A DNA stretch of 64,000 nucleotides. It comes from an uncultured Bacilli bacterium (GTDB lineage: Bacteria > Bacillota_I > Bacilli_A > RF39 > UBA660). Each line of letters begins with the position of its first letter. Position 1 is the stretch's first letter. The stretch is from the NCBI GenBank assembly GCA_963929435.1, contig CAWVIV010000006.1, positions 2,535 to 66,534 on the forward strand, read 5' to 3'. Positions 7,474-26,294 of the stretch are shown here, piece after piece. The position numbers and the translations under genes were made by a program. Below the pieces are notes generated by a model. That model saw only the letters and a list, made by a program, of their open reading frames with translations, did no database searches and had not been told where the DNA came from.

Positions 7474-8613
7474 TTACCATCTAATATGAAGCCCTAATTT
7501 TTCAAAATAATTTTGATACCATTTTCTATTGACTCTAGCAGGCTTACTATTATAAATTAATTTAAATATTTTTTGTCTAACTATTTCTATAATTAAAGAA
7601 ATTACAAAGATAGCAAGGGTAACTACAATTACAAATAATAAAGTTTGAATAGTTACATTATCTATATTATAAAATCCCAACCAATCATATAAATAAGTTC
7701 TAACATATATATTTTCATGAATTAAATAAATACCTAAAACATATTTAGCAATAAAATTAACTTTCTTACTCTTAAAAGTAAAAGTACTAAAAATAAGAAA
7801 GTAAAAAATACTCTGTAAAATAACAATTGGGCTAGCAAAACTAATATTCATATAGCCAAAAATAGCAGAAAGTTCTTTAGCCACGCTACCTAATTGTCCT
7901 AAATAATTGTAAGCCAACCAGCAAAATACGGAAAGTAATGCACAAAACAAAAATAAGATTATATAAATAAATCTTTTCGCTTCAAGAGAAAAAGGCTTCA
8001 TAAAATAAGAATTATTAATGGGATATAATCTAATGTAACTGCCAATAAAATAAAGTAATATAAAAGTTGATAAAGATCTACCCGTAACAGTATTAAAGAA
8101 AACATCTCTTGTTAATGTTGATAACAAACTAACAACAATAAATAAAACAATTATTATTTTTTGTAAATCTCTTTTCGTACTATTATTAATAACTTTATTT
8201 AAAATAGGACTAATTAAATAAAGAATCAAATAACTACTAATAAACCAATATATACCAAAATCAATTGGTAATAAAGTTTGAATTAAGGTAATAATATCTG
8301 GAACTGCTATAACACCAAAAGCAATAAATAATACCATAATTAAAACTTTATAAAACCAAGTCATATTATTTAAAGCTAAGACTTTTCCTAACCGCATTTT
8401 ACTTTTACATTGAAAATATCCTGTAATTAAAATAAACGAATTAACATGAACTAAAATTAAAGCCTCTAAAAATACAACAACTATTTTCATAGAACCACTA
8501 GCATAATCAAGTAAGGCTCCATGAACTAATACATGATATAAAATAATGAAAATCATTGAAATAATTCTCATAAGTTCAAAATTTGAATCTCTAGTTTTAT
8601 TAACAGCTTCCAT
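7474..8613 (-). CDS. Acyltransferase family 3 (membrane O-acyltransferase)
   Basis: N-terminal RDSNFELMRIISM...YH, FILITGYF, YWFISSY, YLIH; about 10 TMs. Confidence 0.85.
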   Translation of the reverse strand: MEAVNKTRDSNFELMRIISMIFIILYHVLVHGALLDYASGSMKIVVVFLEALILVHVNSFILITGYFQCKSKMRLGKVLALNNMTWFYKVLIMVLFIAFGVIAVPDIITLIQTLLPIDFGIYWFISSYLILYLISPILNKVINNSTKRDLQKIIIVLFIVVSLLSTLTRDVFFNTVTGRSLSTFILLYFIGSYIRLYPINNSYFMKPFSLEAKRFIYIILFLFCALLSVFCWLAYNYLGQLGSVAKELSAIFGYMNISFASPIVILQSIFYFLIFSTFTFKSKKVNFIAKYVLGIYLIHENIYVRTYLYDWLGFYNIDNVTIQTLLFVIVVTLAIFVISLIIEIVRQKIFKLIYNSKPARVNRKWYQNYFEKLGLHIRW

Positions 8614-8740
8614 TTACCTCGCCCCTATCTTATATTCATTATAATAGAAATTAATTTCCTTGTAAAGAATATTTATTTAAAAGGTATTAACAATTATTAG
8701 TATATCCAAAAGCTAAAAAAATATAAAAACAGTTCTAAAA

Positions 8741-10483
8741 CTATTTAAAACTGTTCTTTTTAATAAATGGAATTGCCAAAAGAAATGGTAATGTTGTAAA
8801 TAATGAGAAAATATATCTTGTTTCATTATATACTGGTGTTGCAGCCATAATAGTTAACCATACCGCAAATAAAGGAATATATGGATAAAGAGATTTAAAG
8901 CCATTTCTTTTATAATTAATATAAGCAAAAATAAAGAAAATCCAAACTAATAATCCTATACTCCAAGTTAAAGCTACAATTGGAATATCTTGATTAGTGA
9001 TATTAGCAACATAGTCTTGGATAACCTTTGGTGCTTTAGGCTCAATTTTAACACCTTTTGTATTTTCTACTATTGTATTTTCATATGATCTATCCCAAAT
9101 ATTAGGATACCAATAACCAAGTGTACTAATAGCATAAGACTCTACCGCTATTGTTGGATGCTTAACGACAAGAGTTAACCATAATTTAAAATATTCAAAT
9201 TTATTTTCATCAAAGACTTCTTTATTATAATCATCATTAAACTTTATATTATCAGAACTCATAGGATTATAAATATTCCTTAATAAATCTACATCAATTA
9301 GTTTGTTAAGCGTCTTTTTCTCACTCTTAGTTATAACTACATCTTTATATACCATTCTTCCTATCTGTTGCATTGGAATAGCGATATATTCTGATGAAGC
9401 ACTAGTTTGAACAGAAAAGTAGTTAAAAACAGGGCCTTTAATAATAAAATAAAAACTTAAAACAATTGCGAACATTATAATTAACTTCTTATAATTATTT
9501 CTAAGCATTATAAATGAGAAAATAATCAATACAAAATACATATAAATAGCATTATTTCTAAAGAATATTGTAAAAATAGAAACAATAATAAAAGAGATCA
9601 TATTGCTAATTTTAAGATTATTTCTATTTTCTATAAGTTTATAACATTCTATAGTTAGTAATAAAAGGAAAGCTGCAAAGTAAATATCTTTCCACATAAC
9701 GATACTAAAATAGCCAAATATTGGTGTTAAAGCATAAAAAGCTAATACCGCTATCAATATTTTAAAATTAACTTTATGCTTATATAAGAAAACTAATGAA
9801 TAAGCAAATATAGATGCTAAGACAAGTATCTGGATAATTGAATAAGTCGCAATCGCTGCCGTTAGATTTTTAAAAAGTCCATATCCTATTGTATAAGCTA
9901 ATCTTATTATGAAAAGATGCACTATTGTATGATTATCAAAGGCCAATTGATTTTTTGAAGCTCGCATTAATTCTCCCCAAGAATCAGTAGAAACTGTTCC
10001 TGGAAATAAAGATAAAAAATAAGGAAGCCAAGCTAGAATTACAATAATGAAAGAAATTAAAAATACATACTTACTTTTCTTTTTATCATAAACTATCTCT
10101 TTTAACTTAACTTCACAAAGTCTAGGAACAACATTCCCTAAAAAAAGCTGAAATAAAGCTGTATAACCAATAAAGGAAATTATACTACGAAAAGTAAAGA
10201 ATTCCATAATTATACTAACGTTCCTATCATACATATACTGTATACAAAGATTTCCTAAAACCAAAAGAAAAGCAAAGATTAAAGAAAAAAAGAATTGCCC
10301 TAAATACACCCTTGTTGGCTTTTTAAAATATTTAACAAAAAGAAAAATAAGTGTTATTAATAAACAGAAGGAAAAAAAATTATAAGCTGGAACTATATTA
10401 TTTAAACATAATGTAATATAACTAATTATTGCCAAAATAACATATGTTATCTTTTTATCAAACAAAAGTAATAATTCCCTCAT
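8741..10483 (-). CDS. DUF6020-like polytopic membrane protein (putative GT-C glycosyltransferase)
   Basis: FPGTVSTDS, NHTIVH, MWKDIYF, FRNNA, IPMQQIGR, RYIFSL; paralogous to 11453-13258. Confidence 0.75.
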   Translation of the reverse strand: MRELLLLFDKKITYVILAIISYITLCLNNIVPAYNFFSFCLLITLIFLFVKYFKKPTRVYLGQFFFSLIFAFLLVLGNLCIQYMYDRNVSIIMEFFTFRSIISFIGYTALFQLFLGNVVPRLCEVKLKEIVYDKKKSKYVFLISFIIVILAWLPYFLSLFPGTVSTDSWGELMRASKNQLAFDNHTIVHLFIIRLAYTIGYGLFKNLTAAIATYSIIQILVLASIFAYSLVFLYKHKVNFKILIAVLAFYALTPIFGYFSIVMWKDIYFAAFLLLLTIECYKLIENRNNLKISNMISFIIVSIFTIFFRNNAIYMYFVLIIFSFIMLRNNYKKLIIMFAIVLSFYFIIKGPVFNYFSVQTSASSEYIAIPMQQIGRMVYKDVVITKSEKKTLNKLIDVDLLRNIYNPMSSDNIKFNDDYNKEVFDENKFEYFKLWLTLVVKHPTIAVESYAISTLGYWYPNIWDRSYENTIVENTKGVKIEPKAPKVIQDYVANITNQDIPIVALTWSIGLLVWIFFIFAYINYKRNGFKSLYPYIPLFAVWLTIMAATPVYNETRYIFSLFTTLPFLLAIPFIKKNSFK

Positions 10484-10521
10484 AATATTTTACACCTCTA
10501 TTTTTAACACTTATTAATATA

Positions 10522-11460
10522 TTAATCTCTTTTTTTCATATTAAGTAAAACTAGCTCAAATAATTGACGGTGCTTTTTAACAACTACCTCTAAAATAAGG
10601 CCACACATAAACATCAAAATAGCAACAATCAACAAGAACCCTGCAAATATTAATGTAGGAATTCTTGGCACCAAACCAGTTTTAAAGAATTCAACAAAGA
10701 CAGGGATACCAAATACCAATGATAAAATAAAGAATATTATACTTATTATACTAAAAAATATAGTTGGTTTATATTCTTTAAACAATCTAGCTATAGTTTT
10801 TAATACTCTAAAACCGTCACTATAAGTATTAAGCTTAGAAACACTTCCCTCTGGTCTATCTCTATACTCAACAGGTATCTCTTTTAATAAGAAATTTTTA
10901 TCTAAAGCATGAATAGTCATTTCTGTTTCTATTTCAAAACCTTTTGATAAAACTGGAAAAGTCTTAACAAACTCATAACTAAAAGCTCTATAGCCTGTCA
11001 TAATATCACGAATATCACTTTTAAATAAAGTATTAATTAAGCCCCTAACTAATTTATTACCAAAGTTATGAAAAGGTCTTTTATTTTCTGTAAAATATGT
11101 TGAAGATAATCTATCACCAATTACCATATCAGCTTTACCTTCCAAAACCAAATCGCACATTTCTTTAGCATTTTCTTTAGGATAAGTATCATCACCATCA
11201 ATCATTAAATAACAATCAGAATCTATATCCCTAAACATACTTCTAATAACATTACCTTTACCTTGACGATATTCATATTTAACAATGGCACCTGCTTTTT
11301 TAGCAATTTTATCTGTACCATCAGTAGAATTATTATCATAAACATAAATATCTGCTTTAGGTAAAACTTTTTTATAATCCTTTACAACTTTCTCAATAGT
11401 CTTGCTCTCATTATAACAAGGAATTAATACAGCAATCTTTTTTTCTTTATCTTTACTCAC
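10522..11460 (-). CDS. GT2 polyprenol-phosphate glycosyltransferase-like protein with two C-terminal TMs
   Basis: LIPCYNE, YDNNSTD, MIDGDDTY, DIMTGYRAF, GFEIETE, YRDRPEGSVSKL. Confidence 0.9.
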   Translation of the reverse strand: MSKDKEKKIAVLIPCYNESKTIEKVVKDYKKVLPKADIYVYDNNSTDGTDKIAKKAGAIVKYEYRQGKGNVIRSMFRDIDSDCYLMIDGDDTYPKENAKEMCDLVLEGKADMVIGDRLSSTYFTENKRPFHNFGNKLVRGLINTLFKSDIRDIMTGYRAFSYEFVKTFPVLSKGFEIETEMTIHALDKNFLLKEIPVEYRDRPEGSVSKLNTYSDGFRVLKTIARLFKEYKPTIFFSIISIIFFILSLVFGIPVFVEFFKTGLVPRIPTLIFAGFLLIVAILMFMCGLILEVVVKKHRQLFELVLLNMKKRD

Positions 11461-13258
11461 TTAAACCACTCACTTTCTTATTTTTATTAAAAAAGCATAA
11501 ACAGAATAAAACCGGCACTGTAATAATTAAAGAATATACATATCTTCTCTCACAAAATACAGGCGATAACAAAGCTGTTAAAAATACTCCTAATAATACG
11601 GAAAAGCTACATAATAACATATATCTCTTCTTATATAGAGTATAGCATATAATAGTAATCAAAGTCCACAAATAAAAGCCACAACTTGTTAGCATACTTA
11701 ACAATGGTATATTATGACTATTTAAGAATACATTTAATTCTTTTATAATTGGTGAATACACAATTGGAGTCTGTTCAATATCCAAAACTTCAGTCTCATC
11801 ATCATTATAAATAGTACTAAATACCTCCCAGCCAACTAAATTAGGATAATAATATCCATAAGAACCTGCAATAAAAGCAATTATTGTATCTTTAGGATAT
11901 TTAAAAACAAACTCTAAGTATGTAGTCACTGCATCTATCTTATGATCTTGTAAATATTCTTCTGAAAACACTCTTTTAACGGGATCAGCAAAAGTAGGGT
12001 TATAAAGTTCCATATAAGAATCATCATCAAAGAAACTATCTAATTTTTTCTTTTCACTCTTACTTAAATCATCATCATGATATTTTCTTATTCTTGCAAA
12101 CTGTTGCATAATAACAGATAAGGCTTCTTTACTATTACCGTCTTTAATATCAAAGGCACTAAAAATTGGCCCCGTAATAATAAAACTACAAATAACAGGA
12201 ATAAGAAATGGTAATAAAATTTGTTTTTTACATTTTTTAGGTAAAAATATAAGTAATACAACACCGCCTAAAAGCACACAATATAGTCCATTTTTCCTAA
12301 ATAAAATATCAAGCATAAAGAAAACGCCAAGTAATATTAAATTAGATTTCTTTTTAAAGAATTTATCTTGATTAGTACAAGCTTCCACTAAAAGAATAGT
12401 AGTTATTAAAACACATAAAGCGAATGGAATATCTTTCCACATTGTTAAACTATAAGAACAAACTATAGGACAGAACATAAAAAATAGTAATAATAATTTT
12501 TGCAATAATGCTGGCACTTGCTTCTTATGAAGATATAAAACAGCAAAAGAAAATGTAAAAGCACAAGCAAGCATCTGGATAATAGAATAAATGGCAATAC
12601 CTGCATTGTTACTACCAAATAATAAATTACCTATATTTAAACATAGTCCAATTATCAAAGTATGAAAAATAGGATGATGATTAGTTAAAGCAGTATTACC
12701 CGTAACTTGTAACATTTGTACAGCTGAATCTGCAGAACATATGCCAGGAAAATAATGTAAAAGCCAAGGAATATATGCTAAAAATATAATCAAAGCTAAT
12801 ATCAAAAAGTTTCTTTTATTAGGAACAAATAAATTATTTAATTTACTCTTAGCTTTCTCTTTTATATTAACATTATCAATAAAATTAAATAATAAAGCTG
12901 ACAAGCTTCCAAAGATAACACTACAACTTAAAAACTTAATTATTAAATAAATTGTCATTTTTAAGTTTATATCAATATCACTTAAAATATAATAAGTAAA
13001 AGTAAAACCAATAACATTCAATACTGATAAAACCGTTCCATTTATAAATGAGAAAACTAATAATCTTTTATTTTTTATTTTTAAAAGATAATTAATCATT
13101 AATGCAAAAAAGGCACAGATTATAAGCCAAACAAAATCTGTAGAATTAGCTAAAGAATTTAAAGTTAACTCCATTGCTTGAACATTATAAGCTAGAGAAA
13201 CACCTAACGTTAATATTACTGATGCTAATAAAATTAAAATAATTCTCTTTGCTGTCAT
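11453..13258 (-). CDS. DUF6020-like polytopic membrane protein (putative GT-C glycosyltransferase)
   Basis: FPGICSADS, NHHPIFHT, MWKDIPF, FRKNG, MQQFAR, RYVYS. Confidence 0.75.
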   Translation of the reverse strand: MTAKRIILILLASVILTLGVSLAYNVQAMELTLNSLANSTDFVWLIICAFFALMINYLLKIKNKRLLVFSFINGTVLSVLNVIGFTFTYYILSDIDINLKMTIYLIIKFLSCSVIFGSLSALLFNFIDNVNIKEKAKSKLNNLFVPNKRNFLILALIIFLAYIPWLLHYFPGICSADSAVQMLQVTGNTALTNHHPIFHTLIIGLCLNIGNLLFGSNNAGIAIYSIIQMLACAFTFSFAVLYLHKKQVPALLQKLLLLFFMFCPIVCSYSLTMWKDIPFALCVLITTILLVEACTNQDKFFKKKSNLILLGVFFMLDILFRKNGLYCVLLGGVVLLIFLPKKCKKQILLPFLIPVICSFIITGPIFSAFDIKDGNSKEALSVIMQQFARIRKYHDDDLSKSEKKKLDSFFDDDSYMELYNPTFADPVKRVFSEEYLQDHKIDAVTTYLEFVFKYPKDTIIAFIAGSYGYYYPNLVGWEVFSTIYNDDETEVLDIEQTPIVYSPIIKELNVFLNSHNIPLLSMLTSCGFYLWTLITIICYTLYKKRYMLLCSFSVLLGVFLTALLSPVFCERRYVYSLIITVPVLFCLCFFNKNKKVSGLSE

Positions 13259-14340
13259 TAATTAACACGCTCCTTACTGAAATCAGGGTTTACAAGTTCT
13301 TCATCAACAATATCTACTGCTCTGTTTTCATGATGACTTAAAATTATTTCTGCTAACAATATTGAACAATCAACTTCTGTATACCAAGGTTCATTTTTTA
13401 TCTCTTCTGGTACATAAGTCAAATTAGTAGAATATACCTGATCATAATATTGATTTTTATAAGCTTCCCTAAATTTCTCTATTCCTGCTGTAAATAAAGC
13501 AAAAGTAGAAACCAATATAATTTTCTTAGCACCACGCTCTTTTAGTTCTTTTGCAACATCAAGCATAGAGCCACCAGAAGCAATCATATCATCAATAACT
13601 AATACTGTTAAATCTTTAGGATCTTTTCCTAAATAAACATGTTCAACAACAGGATTTTTACCATTTACTACTTTACTCAAATCTCTTCTCTTATAAAATA
13701 ATCCAACATCAGAACCAAGCTTTTCTGCATAATATCTAGCTCGCTCCATCGCTCCCATATCTGGACTAATAACTAAAAGATTTTTTAAATCTATCGATTC
13801 ATTAGAAATAATAGAATTTAAAATTAAATCTGAAGCAAAATAGTTTTCAAAAGGTAAGTTTGGAATTGCATTAGAAACATTAGGATCATGACAATCAAAT
13901 GTAATAATATTATTAACTCCTAAAGATTCTAACTCTTGTAATGCTAAAGCACAGTCCAAAGATTCTCTTTCTCTTCTTCTATGTTGACGTGATTGATATA
14001 AGAAAGGCATAATAACTGTAACTTTAGAAAATCTACCATTTGTAGCAGAAATTACCCTTTTAATATCTTGAAAATGTTCATCTGGAGACATCTGGTGTTT
14101 ATTTCCATAAAACTCATAAGATATACTATAATTACCAACATCAGAAAGAATATATAAATCTTTATCCATAATAGATTCACTTATATAAAGTTTACCTTCG
14201 CCATTATTGAAACGACTACATACCACATTAGTAATGTAAGAATTTTTATTATTAGTCATTTCTTTTAGATGATTATCAATCTCTTCTCCAAGTTCTTTAC
14301 AATTTTCAAAAGCAATGATTTTCAAATTAGAACTTTTCAT
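13258..14340 (-). CDS. prs: Ribose-phosphate pyrophosphokinase (PRPP synthetase)
   Basis: RFNNGE, FLYQSRQ, ITFDCHD, VISPDMGA, YKRR, PRPP-binding VIDDMIASGGS. Start at ATG 14340 after GAGGTG. Confidence 0.92.
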   Translation of the reverse strand: MKSSNLKIIAFENCKELGEEIDNHLKEMTNNKNSYITNVVCSRFNNGEGKLYISESIMDKDLYILSDVGNYSISYEFYGNKHQMSPDEHFQDIKRVISATNGRFSKVTVIMPFLYQSRQHRRRERESLDCALALQELESLGVNNIITFDCHDPNVSNAIPNLPFENYFASDLILNSIISNESIDLKNLLVISPDMGAMERARYYAEKLGSDVGLFYKRRDLSKVVNGKNPVVEHVYLGKDPKDLTVLVIDDMIASGGSMLDVAKELKERGAKKIILVSTFALFTAGIEKFREAYKNQYYDQVYSTNLTYVPEEIKNEPWYTEVDCSILLAEIILSHHENRAVDIVDEELVNPDFSKERVN

Positions 14341-15460
14341 TTTTATCACCTCTTATTTTATCCCTAAATTTAACAAGTAAACTCCTAGATGAATAATTAC
14401 GTAATTTTTCATATTTTTCTAACAATAAATTAAACTCTTTTTCCCAATATTCTTTTGCATATTTCATATTTATTAAATCATTATTTATTGCAAATTTTTC
14501 CTCATTGATATTATATCTATATATTGAGACTAGTTTATTTACATAATGACAATATTTTACCATATCATAAGTAAACTCTTTTTTTAACGAAGTTTCATCA
14601 TTAATAAAATGTTGAACTCTTTTTATTAATTCATCTCTTATCTTTAAATGATCCTTACGAGCTTTTTTATTTAAATAATTTGCTAAATCAGATTGTAAAA
14701 ATTCTTCTTCACTACAATAGTCTAATAAAGATATATAATCTTCAATTCTATTAACTACATCATAATTTTTACTATCATATATTAATAATACTGGTGTACC
14801 AACAGCTAAACATGGTAATGCACAATGAAGCCTAGTAGTAATAACTAATTCTGAACTTTGATATTCATATATCAATTTCTCTACATTATCCATTCTCTCT
14901 ATATAACTCAATTTCTCATTTTTGCTTTTGTCTAAATTATGAGTAACTTCTTTAATTAAATTTTTATATTCAGATGCAACTTTTTTCTTAATATTATCAG
15001 AAACATCAACTAGTGTAATTTTTTTCTCTTTTTTAACATTTTTTAATTTTGGAATAGTCAACGTTAAACAATATGATTTATAGGTATCAACATTATTTTC
15101 CTTTAATAACTCTTCTGTTACTTTATCTCTACATCCTATAGGTTCATAAAATTTCATATATTCCTGTACATAGCCTTGCATATACTCTTTGGTAATACCA
15201 ATACCATCATTCAATGGAGAAAAATGACAAGATATAAACAAAGGATCTATATATTTAGAAGGTGGAAAACAAAATCTATTATGCATATACCAACCATTCA
15301 TTATAGTTTTTACTTTTTCATTATCATTAGAAACAAATTCGTTTAGTGATTCTCTTTCAATAAAATAATCTACCCTTGGCAATTGTTTCATAGCAGCATA
15401 ACTCTGTATATCATCACCAATATTCGTTGTCTCCTTAAATACAATTATTCCATATTTCAT
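14327..15460 (-). CDS. Polysaccharide pyruvyl transferase family protein
   Basis: NIGDDIQ, IGCRD, ITTRLHCALPCLAVGTPV. Confidence 0.85.
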   Translation of the reverse strand: MKYGIIVFKETTNIGDDIQSYAAMKQLPRVDYFIERESLNEFVSNDNEKVKTIMNGWYMHNRFCFPPSKYIDPLFISCHFSPLNDGIGITKEYMQGYVQEYMKFYEPIGCRDKVTEELLKENNVDTYKSYCLTLTIPKLKNVKKEKKITLVDVSDNIKKKVASEYKNLIKEVTHNLDKSKNEKLSYIERMDNVEKLIYEYQSSELVITTRLHCALPCLAVGTPVLLIYDSKNYDVVNRIEDYISLLDYCSEEEFLQSDLANYLNKKARKDHLKIRDELIKRVQHFINDETSLKKEFTYDMVKYCHYVNKLVSIYRYNINEEKFAINNDLINMKYAKEYWEKEFNLLLEKYEKLRNYSSRSLLVKFRDKIRGDKNEKF

Positions 15461-15461
15461 A

Positions 15462-16469
15462 TCAATTCATACTCTCTTCTATAAATTTCTTAAAATCTTT
15501 TGCCTTGTAATCCCAAGACCATTTTTTTATTTGTTCTAAATTTTCTTTAGAAATCAAATCTACATCATCAATATTTTCAATAAACAACAATATTTTCCTT
15601 TTTAATTCTTCTTGACTACGCTCTTTCATTATATATTTTTTTTGATTTTTTCCAAATAAATCTCTTACTATACCTACATCAGTAGATATTACAGGAATTC
15701 CACAAGCAAACGATTCAAGTATTGGATTAGGAGTTCCTTCATTAACAGAGCAACAAAGATATAAATCAATTTCATTATAATATTCAACCATCTCTTCACG
15801 ATTTCTTAAACGTTCAGTGCTATCAGCCAAATGTAAATTTATATTATATCCTTCAGAAATCAACTCTTTAATTACAGGCTTAATTATAGTATTAAGTCCT
15901 TTATGATCATATTGACCATTCCATTTACTATTTCCAACCCAACCAATATTAATTGTCCTTTCTTTTATATTCTTAAATCTATCTTTTTTAGGTTTAAATA
16001 AATTTAAATCAACACCATCCGTAATTACACAATTAGGATATTTATTTAATTCTAAATGCCCATATAAATCTTTTAACAAACCAGAAGAAACATAATATCC
16101 TTTTATGTATTTACAAAATTCATTTATCTCTTCTGAACTAAGCAATTTATGATCGTATACTGCCGTTGTAATATTCTTATTTTTTATATATTTATCTATA
16201 AATTCAGTTTTTGATAGTCCCAAATTATAAATATAACTTTCTGTATAATTGTTGTTTAAATCTAATAAAAATCCTCGCCAAAAAAAGTGAATTAAATCAT
16301 ATTCTTGAGCAAACATAAATAAATCAGTAATATTTCCATTTAATCTTTCCATTGCAACTATATCAATATCAAAATCATTCTTTAAGTACTTTTGAAAATT
16401 ACTAGCAATATTATAAAAAGCCCACTTTTCATTATCAACTACTAACAAAATACGTTTTTTCTTACTCAT
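15462..16469 (-). CDS. GT4-type glycosyltransferase
   Basis: IGWVGNS...KG, EGTPNPILESFACGIPVISTDVG (EX7E motif). Confidence 0.88.
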   Translation of the reverse strand: MSKKKRILLVVDNEKWAFYNIASNFQKYLKNDFDIDIVAMERLNGNITDLFMFAQEYDLIHFFWRGFLLDLNNNYTESYIYNLGLSKTEFIDKYIKNKNITTAVYDHKLLSSEEINEFCKYIKGYYVSSGLLKDLYGHLELNKYPNCVITDGVDLNLFKPKKDRFKNIKERTINIGWVGNSKWNGQYDHKGLNTIIKPVIKELISEGYNINLHLADSTERLRNREEMVEYYNEIDLYLCCSVNEGTPNPILESFACGIPVISTDVGIVRDLFGKNQKKYIMKERSQEELKRKILLFIENIDDVDLISKENLEQIKKWSWDYKAKDFKKFIEESMN

Positions 16470-16710
16470 GATTCTTCCCTCTTAAATTAAATAAAAATCT
16501 TTTCTTTTTTGTAATATCAGCATCATTAGGTTTATTTAATAGATAAAATATTTCATCCCTAATATTAGGAAATTTAGGCCTTTCTTCTTCTCTACCATTC
16601 CAATAATTATTTAAAATAATCTGTAATTCGTGATTTTCCATCTCATATATTTTAACTTTTTCTTCATTAATAACTTTATTAAGTTCATCTTCTTTTATAA
16701 CTTTCCCCAT
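16462..16710 (-). CDS. Small hypothetical protein
   Basis: 82-aa ORF with GGTGA RBS, packed in the operon and overlapping the next gene. Confidence 0.6.
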   Translation of the reverse strand: MGKVIKEDELNKVINEEKVKIYEMENHELQIILNNYWNGREEERPKFPNIRDEIFYLLNKPNDADITKKKRFLFNLRGKNHE

Positions 16711-16719
16711 ATAATCACC

Positions 16720-17880
16720 TTATTTATTAATAATTTTTCTATACGCTTTATAAATTCTAGGATGATTATTTCTTAAACGTCTGCCTACAAACTTTTTAAT
16801 TGAACTATCTTTTGTTTCATATTTTACATAAACATCAAAGAAAAATTTAGATTTTGTTTCTAGAACCTCTTGTGTTACTGAAGGCATTTTATTTAATTTT
16901 GTTACAGTATCAAAGAATTTAGCAGATGATTCTTGCCAAGAGCACCACTCGCTAGCTGTCTTAACAGCACCTTTCTTAAGTTTATTTAAATATTTACTAT
17001 CATCTTTTAATTTATTAATACTATCTATAACATCTTGTTCATCATCAGTTTTAACGACTATACCATTTTTACCATTAACAATATACTCATCATGACCTGT
17101 AACATCATAAACAATAGCCGTACCACCGCAATGAAACATCTCTAAAGGTGGACCAAACATTCCTTCAACATAGCTTAATTTAACAATAGCATCACAAGAA
17201 CGATAAATCTTAGCACAATCTTTTGGTGGAATCTGTGAAAATACTCTATCAACACCTTCATACTCTTCAACCTTAGAAGATGTTAATAACCAAACTTCAT
17301 CTGCTTTACTTTGTTTAACAAGTTCTATAGTCCGAGGAACATTTTTAAAAGCAACATCTACTGGTCCTTCAACTAAAATTCTAAGGCCATCACACTTCTC
17401 ATAAGTATCACCAGTAGCTTTATAAATATCTTTTCTAATACCATTATGGACTAAATATGCATCTACACCATATTTAGCTAAATACTCTTTAATCCAAGTA
17501 GCTTCAGTAATAACTTTCATATCTAAAAAGTAAGTCATCTCAGCTAACATTTTAATGCCTTGTTCTTCCTCTGAATAAAACTTTGATTCTATAGACTGAA
17601 CAAAATAAACATAATGTTTAGCTTTAATTCTATATAACTCATAAACAGTTCTCCACCAAGTAGCAATAGCCATATCAAATTCCATATTAACTATATCATC
17701 ATAAGTAACCCATTTTAAGATATGAGCATAAGTATGCCAAGCATATTCTTCAGGATCTACTTTACGATCAGTAACAATATAAACCTCTGCTCCTTGTCTA
17801 GCCATATAAGTTGCATGTTCAAAAATTACAGTTGTCCCTCCACCTATAGCAGGTGAACCTAAAGTAAAAATACATTTCAT
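16720..17880 (-). CDS. GT-B/GT4-like glycosyltransferase
   Basis: GGGTTVIFEHA; KLSYVEGMFGPPLEMFHCGG (EX7E motif). Confidence 0.8.
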   Translation of the reverse strand: MKCIFTLGSPAIGGGTTVIFEHATYMARQGAEVYIVTDRKVDPEEYAWHTYAHILKWVTYDDIVNMEFDMAIATWWRTVYELYRIKAKHYVYFVQSIESKFYSEEEQGIKMLAEMTYFLDMKVITEATWIKEYLAKYGVDAYLVHNGIRKDIYKATGDTYEKCDGLRILVEGPVDVAFKNVPRTIELVKQSKADEVWLLTSSKVEEYEGVDRVFSQIPPKDCAKIYRSCDAIVKLSYVEGMFGPPLEMFHCGGTAIVYDVTGHDEYIVNGKNGIVVKTDDEQDVIDSINKLKDDSKYLNKLKKGAVKTASEWCSWQESSAKFFDTVTKLNKMPSVTQEVLETKSKFFFDVYVKYETKDSSIKKFVGRRLRNNHPRIYKAYRKIINK

Positions 17881-17881
17881 C

Positions 17882-19936
17882 CTAAATAACTCCTTTCCTC
17901 TTTAGATCTATCTTCTTACCTAATTTATAAGTAAATCTAGGAATAAATAATTTTTCATTATATAACTTCTGTAGTGGCCAATACCAACTATCAAAGAAGA
18001 AATCTTTATGTCTTAAATAGTATTTAGCATTTTCTTTAATATAATACTTCCAAGTCATCTTTTTATCTGATTTAAATTCTGTAAACTCAAAAACGCCAAA
18101 GTTTTCATAATGATATATTTTACTGAAAAAATTAAGCTGTTCCTTTGTAGGTTCAAATATCATCTTATAATGAATTTGATTAATCATTTTCTCTACTCTA
18201 TCTTCATCATAATAATTATCTGCTAATATATCTATTAATTGTTTAAACAAATTAAACATTGTATCTTGAATTTTAGAAACAACATCTACATATATTTTTT
18301 GCTCTTCTTTCTTTTCAAATAAAGCTACTTTAACAGTATTATCTTCTTCATAATATCTATTAGCACTACCATGAGAAGCACCTAATAAAACTTCATAAAG
18401 GCTTCTACTTTCATTAAATAAATTATAATTTAAGCTTTCCTTAGGAACATTAGAAAATAATACCCCTTTTTTAGCTTTACTAGCTTTGGGAATCCTGCTA
18501 ACTAGACCAACTAAATAACCAGAAACTTTATAATCCTCGCCTAAAATATTGGCAATATTATCTTGAATGGAACCATTCCAACCTACATCGACTAAACATA
18601 TATCTCTATCATCAGTAAATTGTTTTATATACTTTTTAAATAAAGTATTTTGTTCCACCCTATTTTTCTCGTATAATTCTTTAAAAGTTTTATTATCTTT
18701 TAATCTTCTTAAAATACAAGATTTATTTAACGAATAAACACGTTCTTTTAAATCTTTATTAATAATACTCTTTAACCCTTTCTCCTCATCTTTACTAAGT
18801 TTTAACTCATTAAGAAGCTTCTTAGTATCAGAAACAAAGCTATCTTCTATTTTCTTTAAGTCTTCCTTAGTAAAATTTAAACTCTTAAGTAACTCTTCAA
18901 CACTTGTATAAGAATATTGGTTTAATAAATAATCAAAATTTTCTTCTTTTAAACTTTTTAATGATGGTAAATAGGTAGCTTTTCTAGAAACTAATAGATA
19001 ATAACTCTTTATCTTATCACCATGAATATGTTTAACATATTCATCAAATAATTTTTTTAAAAACTCTCCTTCTCTTGATAAAAAGAATACTTCTTTTCTG
19101 CCTTCTCTAACTAAATTAAAATATAATTTTTCAATAAATAAATACAATGAAAAGATTAAATGCTCAAAATTATTAGTAGAAGTACTAGCTAGCTCTTCTA
19201 ATTTTTTATAAATATCTTTTTCATGTTCAAAAGCCTCATCTTGCATTTTTTGATAACCTCGATGATTTTTTTCACGATTCAAATGAATAGCAACTATTCC
19301 TTTAGCTTTAGGTGAGTCATAATCTGAATATTGATTATCCCCTACCATCACACACTCTGAAGCTTTAGCTTTAATATTCTTTAAAACTACCTCATATAAA
19401 GCACCGCTTTTCTTATTCTTTAAATATTCACAAGAAATAAAATAATCATCAAAAAAATCATCAATACCATGATTAGCAAAAATTTGCTTAATCATATCTT
19501 TAGATAAATACATATCTGAAACACAATAAATCTTTTTACCTTCACTTTTTAATTCTTTTATTTCTTTTATTACTTCTTCATCAACTATCTGAACAGCACT
19601 TTCAACACTAACTTCTATCCTTGTTGACAAATCTTGAAAAGCTTTTTGACTCATTTTAAAGTCAAACATCTTATACATTTCTTTTAATAAATCTTTATAA
19701 GTAAATTCAAAATCATGTCCCGAATTATTATTATTAAAGCCAAGATTATATTCTATTTTCTGTCTAGCTTCATAAATCTCATTCATTGTAATTTCATCAT
19801 CTAAAATTTTAGCCAAATGATTAGCCCAAATTCTTTTAGTATTTTCAGGAAATACATTTCTTTTTACAATAGTATCAAAAATATCAAAAAATACATATTT
19901 ATATTTCTTATCATGTAACTTTTCTAATTCCTTCAT
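17882..19936 (-). CDS. Putative ribofuranosyltransferase: N-terminal HAD phosphatase + C-terminal glycan phosphoribosyltransferase domain
   Basis: HAD motifs FFDIFDT, VSDMY, K, VGDNQYSD. The C-terminal half has FFLSREG, VSRKA and a PRPP-binding-loop-like VDVGWNGSIQ. Confidence 0.72.
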   Translation of the reverse strand: MKELEKLHDKKYKYVFFDIFDTIVKRNVFPENTKRIWANHLAKILDDEITMNEIYEARQKIEYNLGFNNNNSGHDFEFTYKDLLKEMYKMFDFKMSQKAFQDLSTRIEVSVESAVQIVDEEVIKEIKELKSEGKKIYCVSDMYLSKDMIKQIFANHGIDDFFDDYFISCEYLKNKKSGALYEVVLKNIKAKASECVMVGDNQYSDYDSPKAKGIVAIHLNREKNHRGYQKMQDEAFEHEKDIYKKLEELASTSTNNFEHLIFSLYLFIEKLYFNLVREGRKEVFFLSREGEFLKKLFDEYVKHIHGDKIKSYYLLVSRKATYLPSLKSLKEENFDYLLNQYSYTSVEELLKSLNFTKEDLKKIEDSFVSDTKKLLNELKLSKDEEKGLKSIINKDLKERVYSLNKSCILRRLKDNKTFKELYEKNRVEQNTLFKKYIKQFTDDRDICLVDVGWNGSIQDNIANILGEDYKVSGYLVGLVSRIPKASKAKKGVLFSNVPKESLNYNLFNESRSLYEVLLGASHGSANRYYEEDNTVKVALFEKKEEQKIYVDVVSKIQDTMFNLFKQLIDILADNYYDEDRVEKMINQIHYKMIFEPTKEQLNFFSKIYHYENFGVFEFTEFKSDKKMTWKYYIKENAKYYLRHKDFFFDSWYWPLQKLYNEKLFIPRFTYKLGKKIDLKRKGVI

Positions 19937-19941
19937 TTTAT

Positions 19942-20679
19942 CTACTCTCCCATTTGCTTATGATAATACTCATCACATATTTCTTTAACATCACCTATTT
20001 TAACAATTTGTCCATGCTCAAGCCAAACAACCCGATTACATAACTCGCGAATAGACTCTAATGAATGAGAAACATAAAGAACTGTTGTCCCACCTTTTAT
20101 CATTTCTAACATTTTATTTTTACTTTTCTCTTGAAATTTAATATCGCCAACTGATAAAATTTCATCTACAATTAAAATCTCTGGATTAACAATAGTTGCA
20201 ATAGAAAAAGCAAGTTTTGCAACCATACCTGAAGAAAAGTTTCTTATAGGTACATCTAAAAAATCTCTTAATTCTGAAAATTCCACAATCTCATCAAACT
20301 TTTCATCTAAAAAAGCTTTAGAATAGCCTAAAATTGAGCCATTTAAATATATATTTTCTCTTGCTGTAAGTTCAGGATCAAAACCTGCTCCAAGCTCTAT
20401 CATAGGAGAAATAACACCATTAACTGTAACTTTACCTTCTGTAGGCTTCATAACACCACTTACTACTTTTAATAAAGTACTTTTCCCAGCCCCATTACTT
20501 CCGATAAGACCAACTACTTCTCCTTTTTTAACTGAAAACGATACATCTTTTAAAGCCCAGAAATCACTCTTTTGAGGTCTTCTTTTTTTATCAAAAATTG
20601 AAATAAAAGCCTCTTTAATTGAAAAGTTTTTCTCTATTCCCAAATTAAATTTCATTGAAACGTGCTCTAATTTTATCAT
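19942..20679 (-). CDS. wzt: Polysaccharide ABC exporter ATPase without C-terminal carbohydrate-binding module
   Basis: GSNGAGKST, IELGAGFDPELTARENI, FSSGMVAKLAF, DEILSVGD; only 245 aa. Confidence 0.92.
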   Translation of the reverse strand: MIKLEHVSMKFNLGIEKNFSIKEAFISIFDKKRRPQKSDFWALKDVSFSVKKGEVVGLIGSNGAGKSTLLKVVSGVMKPTEGKVTVNGVISPMIELGAGFDPELTARENIYLNGSILGYSKAFLDEKFDEIVEFSELRDFLDVPIRNFSSGMVAKLAFSIATIVNPEILIVDEILSVGDIKFQEKSKNKMLEMIKGGTTVLYVSHSLESIRELCNRVVWLEHGQIVKIGDVKEICDEYYHKQMGE

Positions 20680-20690
20680 ATACAGACCTC

Positions 20691-21503
20691 CTAAATATAG
20701 TAAATAAACTTATCTTGTTTTTTCTTAAAGACAAAGGCTCCAATAAGTAAAGTACCAACTCCGATTAAACCTAAAATTACTAAAGTTGTTATTGAAGGTC
20801 TTGCCCCATACAAGACAATACTTCTAACAGAAGTAATGAATTGATATAAAGGATTAAACTTAAATAAAGTTTGAAGAGAAGCTGGTAATATATCAATACT
20901 ATAAAATACCGGAGTAAAATAATTCCAAATAGTCAAAATTATTCCATAAATATAGAACATATCTCTTAAAAATACAGAAATACAAGATAATAACAAACCT
21001 ATACCAACCGTAAATAAGAAAAAGCATAAGAAAATATAAGGAATTAATAAATAATACCAATTAATAGAAGCAGGATATGTACCTAATCCGAACTGAGTTA
21101 AAATAATCAAAATAAGCCATGGAATCAAAGTTAAGACAAAATTAATTCCTACAAAGATACACTTAGCAACTGGGAAAATATATTTTGGAATATAAACCTT
21201 ATTTATAAGCCCAAAGTTGCCAACAACAGATGTCATTGCATTATTAGTCGCTTCACTAAAATATTGAAACATTACAATACCTGTCATTAAATAAACAAGG
21301 TAATTAATTCCCTCAACACTAAATCTAAACATTTGTGAGAAAACCATTGCCATAACAGTCATCATAAGTACAGGATAAAGTAAACTCCAAACAACACCTA
21401 AAACAGATCTTTTATATTTTACTTTAAAGTCTCTTGTAATTAATTGACTCATAAGAAATTGATACCTTTTAAAATTGCTTAAAATATTTTTTACATTTGT
21501 CAT
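20691..21503 (-). CDS. wzm: Polysaccharide ABC exporter permease
   Basis: RDFKVKYKRSVLGVVWSLLYP, FLRDM, FTPVFY, NPL. Start at ATG 21503 after GAGGTG. Confidence 0.92.
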   Translation of the reverse strand: MTNVKNILSNFKRYQFLMSQLITRDFKVKYKRSVLGVVWSLLYPVLMMTVMAMVFSQMFRFSVEGINYLVYLMTGIVMFQYFSEATNNAMTSVVGNFGLINKVYIPKYIFPVAKCIFVGINFVLTLIPWLILIILTQFGLGTYPASINWYYLLIPYIFLCFFLFTVGIGLLLSCISVFLRDMFYIYGIILTIWNYFTPVFYSIDILPASLQTLFKFNPLYQFITSVRSIVLYGARPSITTLVILGLIGVGTLLIGAFVFKKKQDKFIYYI

Positions 21504-21641
21504 CAAATTACACCTCATAATCATAATAACATATATCATTATTTATTTCAAAACAAAACTGGAAATTCAGTAAAAAAGAGTAAATTTTTTTCGCAATAAA
21601 TTTGATATAATTACTACATAATAAAAAGGTGGTATGTAGTA

Positions 21642-23750: not shown

Positions 23751-26294
23751 CTAAAACCAAACGCTTACATCAACATTACCTTCAATACCTGGAATCCTCT
23801 CTGTTGATGAATATTGCCACCCAACATAATTACCACCATAATAACAATAATGATTATATTGTGCAATCCAAGCAATTAAACTTTTTAAATAATCAGAATT
23901 TAATACAGTTTCAGCATAGCTTGTATAGGTATAAATTTTAGCAAGCGAACCATAACCACTACTATTCATAACTTCCATAAATCCTCTTGTAACCTCTTCA
24001 TACTCATAAGTACCCATATAACTTGTAATATTATTGCTCTCTAAATCAAGATAAATGCCTAAAGTAGGATTCATATTATATTTTCTTATCATCTCTAATG
24101 TAAAATTAGCATATAGCCTACCTTCATCTTTATTTTCAGCATAACTATATATATAAATACCATAAGGTATACCAAGGCGTTGTAATTCTGCTATATTTCT
24201 AGCGAGCATAGCATCTTCTTCTTCACAACCAGCTGCTATTCTTAAAATTACGCCATCTACTCCACCTTGACTTATAACAGTATTCCAATCAATAAACCCC
24301 TGGTAAGCAGAAACATCGATTACTTTCTTTACATTTTCTCCAATCATAACCCCAAGAGAATTAAAGAAATACTTCTTACCAGTAATAGTCACCCAATCAT
24401 TAGCATAAGTACCATCAGGATAATAATATCTAACATTACCATCAGTATCGGTAACAAAGCCATCACGTAACTTACCATCTGTATTAAAGACATAATTAAC
24501 ATCATCTATTGTCTTTTCGCCAACTGTCATCTCACCAGTACTAGGATCAAAATAATACATATAACCATCAATTAAAACCCAACTAGTACGCATTGCACCA
24601 TTTACACGACTAAAGAATCTAGTTATACCTTCAACTACTTGAAAACCTGTTTGCATTACCCCTTCATCATTAAAATAATAATAAACTCCGTCTATAGGAA
24701 AAAAACCAGTTCGCATTTCATGATTATTAATACGGCTAAAGAAATAAGTATTACCATCAATTACTTGAAAGCCAAAATCCTGTAATCCTAACTCATCAAA
24801 ATAATACTTAAGGCCTTCTATTTCAACGATACCAAGTTGCATTTTACCAGTTTCATCAAAATATCTAATACCTCCAATCATTTCTTGCCAACCAGTTTGC
24901 ATTATTCCTTCGTCATTAAAATAATAATAAATACCATCTATAGCAAAAAGACCTGTTCTTAATTTGCCATCTAATCTACCAAAGAAATAAGTATTTCCAT
25001 CAATTACTTGAAAGCCTATTTGCATTGCTCCTTCGTCATTAAAATAATAAGTATCATCATCTATAACAAGCACTCCTGTCTGAGCCACACCAGTTTTCTC
25101 ATCAAGATAATAGGTATTCATACCATCTGTTTGAAAGCCTGTTTGCATTATTCCATCTTCGTTAAAAAAGTAATAACTACCATCTATATTAATATAGCCA
25201 ACTGCCATACCACCGTTATCATCAAAATACATAGTGTTACCATCTAACTTTTTCCATCCTGTTTGCATTATTCCTTCATCATTAAAATAATAATAAATGC
25301 CATCAATTGCAAATATTCCTATTCTCATTTCATTATTATTAGTACGTCCAAAAAAATAAGTATTTCCATCTATTTCTCTAAAACCACTTGCTCTTTTACC
25401 ATCTGCATCAAAATAATAAGTATAACCATCTTCTTCATACCATCCTGTCTGCATAACCCCAGTTTCATCAAAATAATACTCTGAACCATCAATTGCAAAT
25501 ATTCCTGTTCTCATTTCATTATTATTAGTACGTCCAAAGAAATAAGTCTTTCCATCTATTTCCCTAAAGCCACTCGCTCTTTTACCATCTGCATCAAAAT
25601 AATAAGTATAGCCATCTTCTTCATACCATCCTGGTTGCGCAGCACCATCAGAACCAAATCTATACATAACATCATCAATCTTAAACATGCCTGTACGCAT
25701 TTCATTATTATTTATACGACTAAAGAAATAAGTATTACCACCTATCTCCCTAAAGCCACTTGCTCTTTTACCATCTGCATCAAAATAATAAGTATAACCA
25801 CCTTCTTTATACCATCCTGTTTGCATAACCCCAGTTTCATCAAAATAATACACTGAACCATCAATTGTAAATATTCCTGTTCTCATTTCATTATTATTAG
25901 TACGTCCAAAGAAATAAGTATTTCCATCTATCTCTCTAAAACCACTCGCTCTTTTACCATCTGCATCAAAATAATAAGTATAACCATCGTCTTCATACCA
26001 TCCTGTTTGCATAACCCCATTAGAATCAAAATAATATACTGAACCATCAATTGCAAATATTCCTGTTCTCATTTCATTATTATTAGTACGCCCAAAAAAA
26101 TAGGTATTACCATCTATTACTTGAAAACCTGTCTGTTTAACACCATTAACATAATAGTATGTATAGCCGCCTTCAGTAACTAAACCATTTAATGCATTAT
26201 ATGTACTTTCTTCATTATTTATTTCATCTGCATTAACTGTTAATGGACATATAATAAGCAATGCAACTATAAATACAAATATTTTTCTATTCAT
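23751..26294 (-). CDS. Secreted cell-wall-binding-repeat protein with C-terminal GH25 muramidase domain
   Basis: Signal peptide, about 30 YYF..G.MQTG repeats, and a C-terminal domain with IDVSAYQG, GVILR, YLDLES, WIAQY, WQYSS, VDVS. Confidence 0.9.
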   Translation of the reverse strand: MNRKIFVFIVALLIICPLTVNADEINNEESTYNALNGLVTEGGYTYYYVNGVKQTGFQVIDGNTYFFGRTNNNEMRTGIFAIDGSVYYFDSNGVMQTGWYEDDGYTYYFDADGKRASGFREIDGNTYFFGRTNNNEMRTGIFTIDGSVYYFDETGVMQTGWYKEGGYTYYFDADGKRASGFREIGGNTYFFSRINNNEMRTGMFKIDDVMYRFGSDGAAQPGWYEEDGYTYYFDADGKRASGFREIDGKTYFFGRTNNNEMRTGIFAIDGSEYYFDETGVMQTGWYEEDGYTYYFDADGKRASGFREIDGNTYFFGRTNNNEMRIGIFAIDGIYYYFNDEGIMQTGWKKLDGNTMYFDDNGGMAVGYINIDGSYYFFNEDGIMQTGFQTDGMNTYYLDEKTGVAQTGVLVIDDDTYYFNDEGAMQIGFQVIDGNTYFFGRLDGKLRTGLFAIDGIYYYFNDEGIMQTGWQEMIGGIRYFDETGKMQLGIVEIEGLKYYFDELGLQDFGFQVIDGNTYFFSRINNHEMRTGFFPIDGVYYYFNDEGVMQTGFQVVEGITRFFSRVNGAMRTSWVLIDGYMYYFDPSTGEMTVGEKTIDDVNYVFNTDGKLRDGFVTDTDGNVRYYYPDGTYANDWVTITGKKYFFNSLGVMIGENVKKVIDVSAYQGFIDWNTVISQGGVDGVILRIAAGCEEEDAMLARNIAELQRLGIPYGIYIYSYAENKDEGRLYANFTLEMIRKYNMNPTLGIYLDLESNNITSYMGTYEYEEVTRGFMEVMNSSGYGSLAKIYTYTSYAETVLNSDYLKSLIAWIAQYNHYCYYGGNYVGWQYSSTERIPGIEGNVDVSVWF
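25263..26130 (-). repeat. Intragenic tandem repeat, 186-bp (62-aa) period, about 4.5 near-identical copies
   Basis: The marker AAATATTCCT recurs at 25311, 25497, 25869 and 26055 (multiples of 186), with a diverged copy in between. Confidence 0.85.

Follow-up and report, generated by a model that had tools for sequence, protein, structure and literature searches.

How do bacteria provide the donors from which their surface glycans are built? Glycan loci carry donor-supply genes such as rmlABCD (dTDP-rhamnose), glf (UDP-Galf) and ugd (UDP-GlcA), which are co-transcribed with the transferases that consume the donor, are often paralogs of or additions to core metabolism, and travel with the locus. 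A further donor, phosphoribosyl pyrophosphate (PRPP), is used by the PRP-gPRT ribofuranosyltransferases, whose original description is reportedly that of Kelly et al. (2022, Nat Chem Biol 18:530). In these enzymes PRPP is the source of the ribose 5-phosphate that the gPRT domain transfers, and the 5-phosphate is stripped by a HAD phosphatase (PMC11231755; PMC11294581). A PRPP-dependent route to lipid-linked pentofuranose has also been described (PMC11127046). Here we analyze a PRPP synthase gene, prs, found among glycan genes in a 64,000-nucleotide stretch (hereafter the window; AT-rich, with a G+C content of about 26%) on contig C6 of an uncultured Bacilli bacterium, genome G000, whose 1.50-Mb assembly is 87.6% complete. 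Other genomes, loci and contigs are likewise referred to by G, L and C numbers. We consider it likely that the window prs, a paralog of a prs gene linked to NAD salvage, serves as the PRPP supply within a surface-glycan cassette that makes a ribofuranose polymer.

The window prs and its neighbour

The window prs (13258-14340, minus strand) encodes a 360-residue protein that NCBIfam places in the PRK06827 subfamily. It contains the domains Pribosyltran_N (PF13793, 65 bits), Pribosyltran (PF00156, 56 bits) and PF14572 (38.5 bits), and it scores 450.4 bits against NF005299/PRK06827 (cut-off 327) and 187 bits against TIGR01251 (cut-off 113), while falling short of every class I equivalog cut-off, for example those of NF002320 (132.7 versus 297) and NF002618 (98 versus 460). 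Its catalytic motifs are intact, namely R118-Q119 of the ATP site, the FDCHD His, the YKRRD/KRR motif of the catalytic flexible loop and the ribose-5-phosphate loop VIDDMIASGGS, and all of them are common to the paralog and every aligned relative. Within the glycan-linked clade described below, pairwise ratios of nonsynonymous to synonymous substitution (dN/dS) are 0.05-0.25, as in the sister clade, and indicate purifying selection; the synonymous distances (dS) of 0.9-2.3 are near saturation, so these values are rough. We infer that the window gene encodes a functional PRPP synthase, which would convert ATP and ribose 5-phosphate to PRPP and AMP. Could the protein instead be a non-catalytic, Prs-like regulator of the NAD-linked enzyme, comparable to the PRPP-synthetase-associated proteins or to yeast Prs1/Prs5? 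It is a diverged paralog on a long stem (0.39-0.44) with changes in the regulatory loop and C-terminus. However, its ATP and ribose-5-phosphate motifs are the same in kind as those of the paralog, it is the only Prs in three genomes in which PRPP users exist (G040, G042, and G115), and purifying selection on it is strong. We regard a non-catalytic subunit as exceedingly improbable.

The initial annotation of this DNA had described prs as overlapping the genes on either side and as sharing a gene run with a PRPP-consuming ribofuranosyltransferase, and both descriptions are borne out. The prs start is the ATG at 14340, so placed that the gene overlaps the stop of the upstream pyruvyltransferase gene by 14 nt, and a Shine-Dalgarno sequence, AAGAGGTGA (14347-14355, minus strand), lies 6 nt 5' of this ATG within the 3' end of the pyruvyltransferase gene. 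At its other end, the prs TAA and the ATG of a DUF6020 gene have one base in common (TAATG). The transferase gene (17882-19936, minus strand) lies 3.5 kb upstream of prs. Its 684-residue, two-domain product (HAD, identified by Pfam, and gPRT) matches the Thermobacillus composti ribofuranosyltransferase, PDB 7SHG, at an E-value of 6.5e-126 by phmmer, with both domains aligned (residues 9-389 of the query pair with 32-425 of the chain, and 406-626 with 417-641), and it matches the Haemophilus Bcs3 polymerase at 1.2e-11. Judged by these alignments, the product is a true PRP-gPRT ribofuranosyltransferase and a clear member of that family. The arrangement is the one expected of a donor-supply gene: prs is on the same strand as the glycosyltransferase genes, in a tightly packed or overlapping series without an internal terminator. 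No terminator-like site was found on the minus strand between 6500 and 23800, and a promoter scan was uninformative, returning 111 sites where 125 are expected by chance from shuffled sequence.

A second prs in the genome, which the initial annotation had proposed to look for, is present, and the count is exactly two. The second gene, on contig C1 (L002), encodes a 357-residue protein that is 61% identical to the window copy and likewise belongs to PRK06827 (464 bits), and its stop codon overlaps nadD by 4 nt (L002:1492-3152). This supposed housekeeping copy looks like a Prs attached to NAD salvage. Among 24 genomes of its genus, G000 alone contains two prs genes. In a further genome, G338, a gene for nicotinate phosphoribosyltransferase (NAPRTase) lies 6 kb from the NAD-type prs paralog.

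A Prs clade found in glycan loci

Are the Prs proteins of glycan loci related to one another? In a first tree of 47 Prs sequences, the seven operon-linked copies form one clade (support 100/100, stem 0.44), which is sister to a clade containing the C1 paralog and its genus. We then searched metagenomes with the window Prs, collected 80 loci, scored their gene contexts and built a tree of 128 Prs sequences. This tree contains one 22-row clade (SH-aLRT 100, stem 0.39) that holds every glycan-locus Prs with the exception of L158, and merging near-identical rows reduces the 22 rows to 17 distinct loci. In 16 of these 17 a gPRT or an enzyme resembling decaprenyl-phosphate phosphoribosyltransferase (DPPRS) is encoded within 10 kb. 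Eleven loci (the window, G040-G045, L133, L139, L142, and L143) have a canonical PRP-gPRT 2.3-5 kb upstream of prs, and three (G115, L141, and L144) have divergent or fused gPRTs beside it. The gPRT of G115, 666 residues long and 27% identical to that of the window, ends 44 bp before prs; the proteins of L141 (4425-7511) and L144 (15664-18615) are about 1000 residues long, combine GT2, a PRP-like HAD domain and a weak gPRT-like region, and may each act as a single-chain polymerase of a repeat that contains ribofuranose. Two loci (L137 and G229, the latter also sampled as L132) have a UbiA-type, polyprenyl-phosphate phosphoribosyltransferase-like enzyme beside prs. The remaining one, L135, is a 6.5-kb contig on which no consumer is visible. 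The linkage to gPRT genes that the initial annotation proposed to check is thus found in 14 of the 17 loci, with the UbiA-type enzyme in another two, and the neighbourhood of these relatives is not unrelated to ribosyltransferases. Beyond what that annotation proposed, the analysis delimits a Prs clade whose members accompany PRPP-dependent glycan enzymes of two unrelated kinds.

The second of these enzymes finds its best PDB match, over its full length, in the Mycobacterium tuberculosis decaprenyl-phosphate phosphoribosyltransferase 8j8j (E-value 9.7e-37), and it scores just below two NCBIfam cut-offs for that enzyme (204.7 versus 207 for NF008978 and 218.6 versus 234 for NF008977). The L137 and G229 enzymes contain NDxxDxxxD-type motifs, NDINDVDKD and NDMADVEKD, respectively. 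A PMT-type GT-C glycosyltransferase gene adjoins the UbiA gene in L137; in G229 the adjoining genes encode a HAD phosphatase and a 585-residue open reading frame without a Pfam or NCBIfam match, and the PMT-type GT-C gene is found in the same array at a distance of about 14 kb. By its similarity to characterized enzymes, the UbiA-type protein would belong to a PRPP-dependent lipid-linked pentofuranose route, and since prs stands beside it, the same Prs clade would serve a second PRPP-dependent route. A gPRT was also sought at L137 and G229/L132 by tblastn, with a hidden Markov model (HMM) from the gPRT alignment and by hhalign; none was found, and the DPPRS-like UbiA enzyme is there instead. 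Two further features of the G229 locus may be recorded. An NrtR-like Nudix/winged-helix regulator is encoded 1.6 kb downstream of prs, before the PMT-type GT-C gene (L132:7047-7730), and the glycan operon that contains prs also contains a pyruvyltransferase gene paired with a gene for an FrhB/FdhB-like 4Fe-4S protein (L132:13248-15679).

The only sister-clade locus in a glycan context is L158 (1983-11524), where an NAD-type prs is immediately upstream of genes for an ABC exporter pair and for a divergent, 617-residue gPRT; here prs seems to have been recruited independently to a ribofuranose locus. An ordinary housekeeping prs could have come to lie in a glycan locus by chance, with no functional tie, for prs occurs in many contexts and most gPRT loci have none nearby. 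Against such an accident stand the existence of a second paralog, the monophyly of the glycan-locus copies, the adjacency to two unrelated PRPP-using glycan families kept at dS values of 0.9-2.3, and the recruitment at L158, and a chance location is strongly disfavoured. The cassette also clearly moves horizontally with prs aboard: in the hosts G044 and G045 the second Prs proteins are very distant and the glycan-clade Prs proteins closely related, so a cassette containing prs has moved between diverged hosts.

Where would the PRPP go? Members of the sister clade adjoin nadD in 37 of 84 loci, compared with none in the glycan clade. The window prs might feed NAD or nucleotide salvage and merely be co-expressed with envelope genes, as the otherwise NAD-linked character of PRK06827-type Prs and the NrtR-like regulator 1.6 kb from the glycan-clade prs of G229 could suggest. 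However, no glycan-clade member lies beside nadD, G000 already has the NAD-linked paralog, and the gPRT is the only PRPP consumer found among the families searched in G000, so that we find a use of the product elsewhere very unlikely. These searches covered type I phosphoribosyltransferases (PF00156) and uracil phosphoribosyltransferase (PF14681), for which G000 and 14 related genomes gave no match other than the prs genes; in G000, at 87.6% completeness, there is also no match to PF04095 or PF01040, that is, no NAPRTase and no UbiA-family gene. Across a sample of 401 genomes of the order to which the window belongs (gut Bacilli with genomes of 0.6-1.9 Mb), 167 (42%) encode a PRK06827-type Prs, and by Pfam 10 of 40 relatives have no Prs. 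Together these data suggest that the order uses little PRPP and has a nucleotide metabolism that does without it. If the gPRT is the sole consumer and takes one PRPP per ribose, the polymer would then dominate PRPP demand, and the extra prs copy is most simply read as a means of expressing synthase and transferase together.

Operon context, the insertion and the allosteric site

All genes from 21539 to 7474 lie on the minus strand, and between 21539 and 8741 adjacent genes overlap or are at most 38 nt apart; a gap of 127 nt precedes the last gene. At the head of the operon, an ABC-2 permease (20691-21539; Pfam ABC2_membrane) and an ABC ATPase (19942-20679; Pfam ABC_tran) form a glycan exporter pair that is conserved upstream of the gPRT in relatives. 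The transferase gene is followed, as always, directly by a GT4 gene (GT4a, 16720-17880; Pfam), whose product is 61-81% identical and syntenic in L003-L020, is 53-56% identical in Paenibacillus and Eubacterium loci, and is the probable partner adding the alternating sugar. Next come a small open reading frame of 82 residues (16462-16710) and a second GT4 gene (GT4b, 15462-16469; Pfam), a pair that recurs in L006, and then the polysaccharide pyruvyltransferase gene (14327-15460; PS_pyruv_trans, PF04230, 83.5 bits) directly upstream of prs. Downstream of prs, profile matches identify DUF6020 (11453-13258), an AglJ-like GT2 (10522-11460; TIGR04182, 241 bits against a cut-off of 325), a second DUF6020 (8741-10483) and Acyl_transf_3 (7474-8613), all on the minus strand like the genes above. 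The two DUF6020 products are membrane proteins, and the DUF6020-GT2-DUF6020 order (8741-13258) has the layout of a polyprenyl-phosphate-sugar synthase with GT-C-type side-chain glycosyltransferases; the downstream genes (7474-13258) probably function in lipid-linked side-chain glycosylation and O-acylation. Upstream of the operon, an 847-residue protein (23751-26294, minus strand) contains about ten choline-binding/cell-wall-binding repeats and a GH25 muramidase domain, and homologs occupy the same position in L003, L005, L008, L013, and L143. The polymer could be the wall ligand of this protein.

We propose the following model for the cassette. First, prs would share a transcript with the ABC-transporter-dependent glycan genes and be translationally coupled to them, and PRPP output would rise with polymer synthesis. 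Second, the PRP-gPRT would take one PRPP per ribofuranose, placing ribose 5-phosphate on the growing chain and then removing the 5-phosphate. GT4a would add the next sugar, the pyruvyltransferase would decorate the chain, and the ABC pair would export it. The direction of PRPP flux toward the polymer is, like the transcription of the operon as a unit, a prediction of this model.

With respect to class I Prs, the window protein contains a 14-residue insertion, Y71-M84 (14089-14130, minus strand), and alignments show it to be a feature of PRK06827 as a whole: it is present in the C1 paralog (SDVGNYDITYNMHGFTHHMGPDEHFQDIK) and in 116 of 116 aligned PRK06827-type sequences, and the class I enzymes have a 14-column gap. 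We considered the insertion as a mark of specialization of the glycan copy and rejected it, as it is common to both paralogs and all relatives. The insert noted by the initial annotation is real and is absent from class I Prs; only its association with the glycan copy falls away.

Is the glycan-clade enzyme regulated like other PRPP synthases? Allosteric site 1 of class I enzymes comprises Ser47, Arg49, Lys100, Arg104, Gln135, Asp143, Ser308, Ser310, and Phe313 (PMC10227994; PMC3380012), a residue set that the window copy does not contain in full. It has Met58 at the position of Arg49, Ala341 at Ser308, Asp343 at Ser310 and Asp346 at Phe313, the C-terminal alignment being uncertain by one register; the stretch A341-V-D343-I-V-D346 (13303-13320, minus strand) stands in place of class I Ser308-x-Ser310-x-x-Phe313 (residue roles from PMC10227994). 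At the Ser308 position, no glycan-clade row has Ser, whereas 61 of the 84 sister-clade rows and all 10 deeper relatives do. Similarly, Glu124 in the regulatory flexible loop (13969-13971, minus strand) is a signature of the glycan clade: all 22 clade rows have Glu, and 83 of the 84 sister rows have Gly. The Gln135 position is Ser across the whole PRK06827 subfamily. Loss of Arg49 was tried as a further marker of the clade and rejected, because 13 of the 22 clade rows retain Arg and some of the sister clade has lost it too. These substitutions lead us to suggest, tentatively, that in the glycan clade ADP/Pi allosteric site 1 may be altered or gone, which would let the polymer draw PRPP whatever the adenylate status of the cell.

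Optional carriage of prs and comparison with known systems

Viewed from the side of the transferase, the association is confined to one group of hosts. With a gPRT alignment of 18 homologs we collected the 80 best gPRT loci, one genome per species, and prs lies within 10 kb of the gPRT in six of them (L003-L008), all from uncultured gut Bacilli, some of whose records are labelled Mollicutes or Tenericutes. The gene order of the six is invariant (ABC exporter, gPRT, GT4a, in some cases the small open reading frame and GT4b, pyruvyltransferase, and prs), and the pyruvyltransferase-prs order is also kept in L138, L139, and L143. Eleven sister loci contain the exporter-gPRT-GT4a core without prs, four of them with the pyruvyltransferase. 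None of the other 63 gPRT loci, which include those of Paenibacillus, Desulfobulbales and Eubacterium, has prs nearby.

Several observations weigh against a PRPP supply within the cassette. Among the 401 genomes of the order, 17 encode a gPRT and only four of these have prs beside it; given this count and the 6 of 80 loci above, the extra prs is optional and most gPRT loci do without it. Eight genomes (G451, G190, G135, G125, G413, G266, G053, and G056, of which G053 and G056 contribute the loci L016 and L020, respectively) encode a full-length gPRT and have no prs by TIGR01251 or PF13793, and six of the eight are 91-94% complete. No type I phosphoribosyltransferase was detected in these eight genomes, and no PRPP-making gene was seen at L016. 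Other PRPP consumers of G000 could sit in the part missing from its 87.6% complete assembly. No biochemical characterization of any PRK06827-type Prs was found in the literature searched. The C-terminal alignment is divergent, with MAFFT runs differing by one register, which tells against an altered site 1 in particular, and the loss of Ser310 is weakened as a clade-specific change by the sister clade, only 14 of whose 84 rows have Ser or Thr at this position. Finally, no prs other than the glycan-clade copy was found in G040, G042, and G115, which counts against strict dedication. G040 and G042 also have genes for NAPRTase and gPRT, and since they have no other Prs, the glycan-clade copy would have to make PRPP for them. 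Of the dedicated ribofuranose supply put forward by the initial annotation, the supply is supported by the paralog and the clade linkage, and the word dedicated is too strict. At L016, a DncV-like cyclic-nucleotide synthase (CD-NTase; L016:20413-21579) is encoded a few kilobases from the gPRT glycan locus and is probably an unrelated defence gene.

A stronger version of our proposal holds that the glycan-clade Prs, with its Glu-containing loop, lost C-terminal serines (joined in the window copy by loss of the Arg49 and Phe313 equivalents) and disabled site 1, would be insensitive to feedback and an unregulated source for a polymer that is the main PRPP sink, and that the prs-less gPRT genomes would use a PRPP source of an unrecognized kind. 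The polymer would be the main sink in these PRPP-poor, small-genome Bacilli because no PF00156 or PF14681 phosphoribosyltransferase besides prs is found in the 15 genomes searched. Taken as a whole, we find this version doubtful.

Why should a cassette carry prs at all? One answer is portability: prs would ride in the cassette for the ribofuranose polymer to work in hosts without a PRPP synthase, and not for a boost or insulation of flux. The patchy occurrence of Prs in the order (167 of 401 genomes, and 10 of 40 relatives with none by Pfam), the three genomes in which the cassette copy is the sole Prs and the transfer of the cassette between diverged hosts all fit this idea. However, six of nine glycan-clade hosts also have the NAD-linked paralog, above the 42% background, and prs-less gPRT loci exist in prs-less genomes, where a cassette prs is evidently not required. 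We judge portability unlikely as the explanation, and continue to favour a PRPP supply that accompanies polymer synthesis.

The coupling of prs to glycan synthesis was not known to the initial annotation as a described feature of such loci. Nor did we find a description of prs as part of a ribofuranose glycan locus in the literature searched, the coverage of which was incomplete and left the original gPRT paper outside: papers on ribofuranose loci (PMC11231755, PMC11294581, PMC12096443, and PMC11127046) make no mention of prs, and no role for prs is described in the C. difficile ribose-glycan paper or was retrieved by full-text searches. If our reading is correct, the rule by which a glycan locus includes the genes for making its donors would also cover PRPP, which the recently discovered ribofuranosyltransferases use as donor. 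Prs proteins of the glycan clade could then serve as a simple genomic marker for PRPP-dependent glycan pathways, including loci with a transferase that has diverged beyond recognition. More broadly, PRK06827-type Prs would be pathway-attached enzymes, one clade attached to NAD salvage and the other to glycan synthesis, and the two paralogs would make a natural pair for asking how the regulation of a PRPP synthase is tuned. A chemo-enzymatic route to ribofuranose glycans that starts from ribose 5-phosphate and ATP, with no added PRPP, may also benefit.

How, then, does the window locus compare with systems already characterized? Class I Prs proteins (B. subtilis 1DKR, E. coli 4S2U, and human PRPS1/2) have the same two-domain fold and catalytic motifs, with phmmer E-values of 1e-22 to 1e-24. 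PRK06827 as a whole differs from them in the 14-residue insertion, in RQHRR in place of RQDRK, in a longer catalytic loop and in DDMIASGGS in place of DDMIDTAGT, and the window copy is, in addition, without equivalents of Arg49, Ser308, Ser310, and Phe313 of allosteric site 1. A further comparison is with the NAD-salvage-linked C1 paralog, which belongs to the same subfamily, has the same insertion and is 61% identical; the two differ in their setting (nadD versus the glycan operon), in the fixed differences G124E, K121R, Y168F, and P169A, and in the loss of the Ser308 equivalent from the glycan copy.

On the side of the consumers, the 684-residue protein of the operon belongs with 7SHG, the Bcs3 module and Salmonella T1 STM0726 (PMC11294581) to a family for which PRPP is the donor, and within the 80 best loci of this family across bacteria the six with prs inside 10 kb all come from small-genome gut Bacilli. 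Likewise, L137 and G229 resemble the polyprenyl phosphoribose synthase systems, namely M. tuberculosis DPPRS (Rv3806c, 8j8j) and the three-component C. youngae ORF15 system (PMC11127046), in combining a DPPRS-like UbiA enzyme with a GT-C protein and, in G229, with a HAD phosphatase; they differ from these systems in that no MATE flippase was identified at L137 or G229. Mycobacteria and Citrobacter draw their PRPP from a housekeeping prs, and PMC11127046 does not mention prs, whereas the glycan-clade loci carry a prs of their own. Finally, we note that prs would play the same role in its glycan operon as rml, glf, and ugd play in theirs, with the difference that the donor it supplies, PRPP, is a central metabolite and not a nucleotide sugar.

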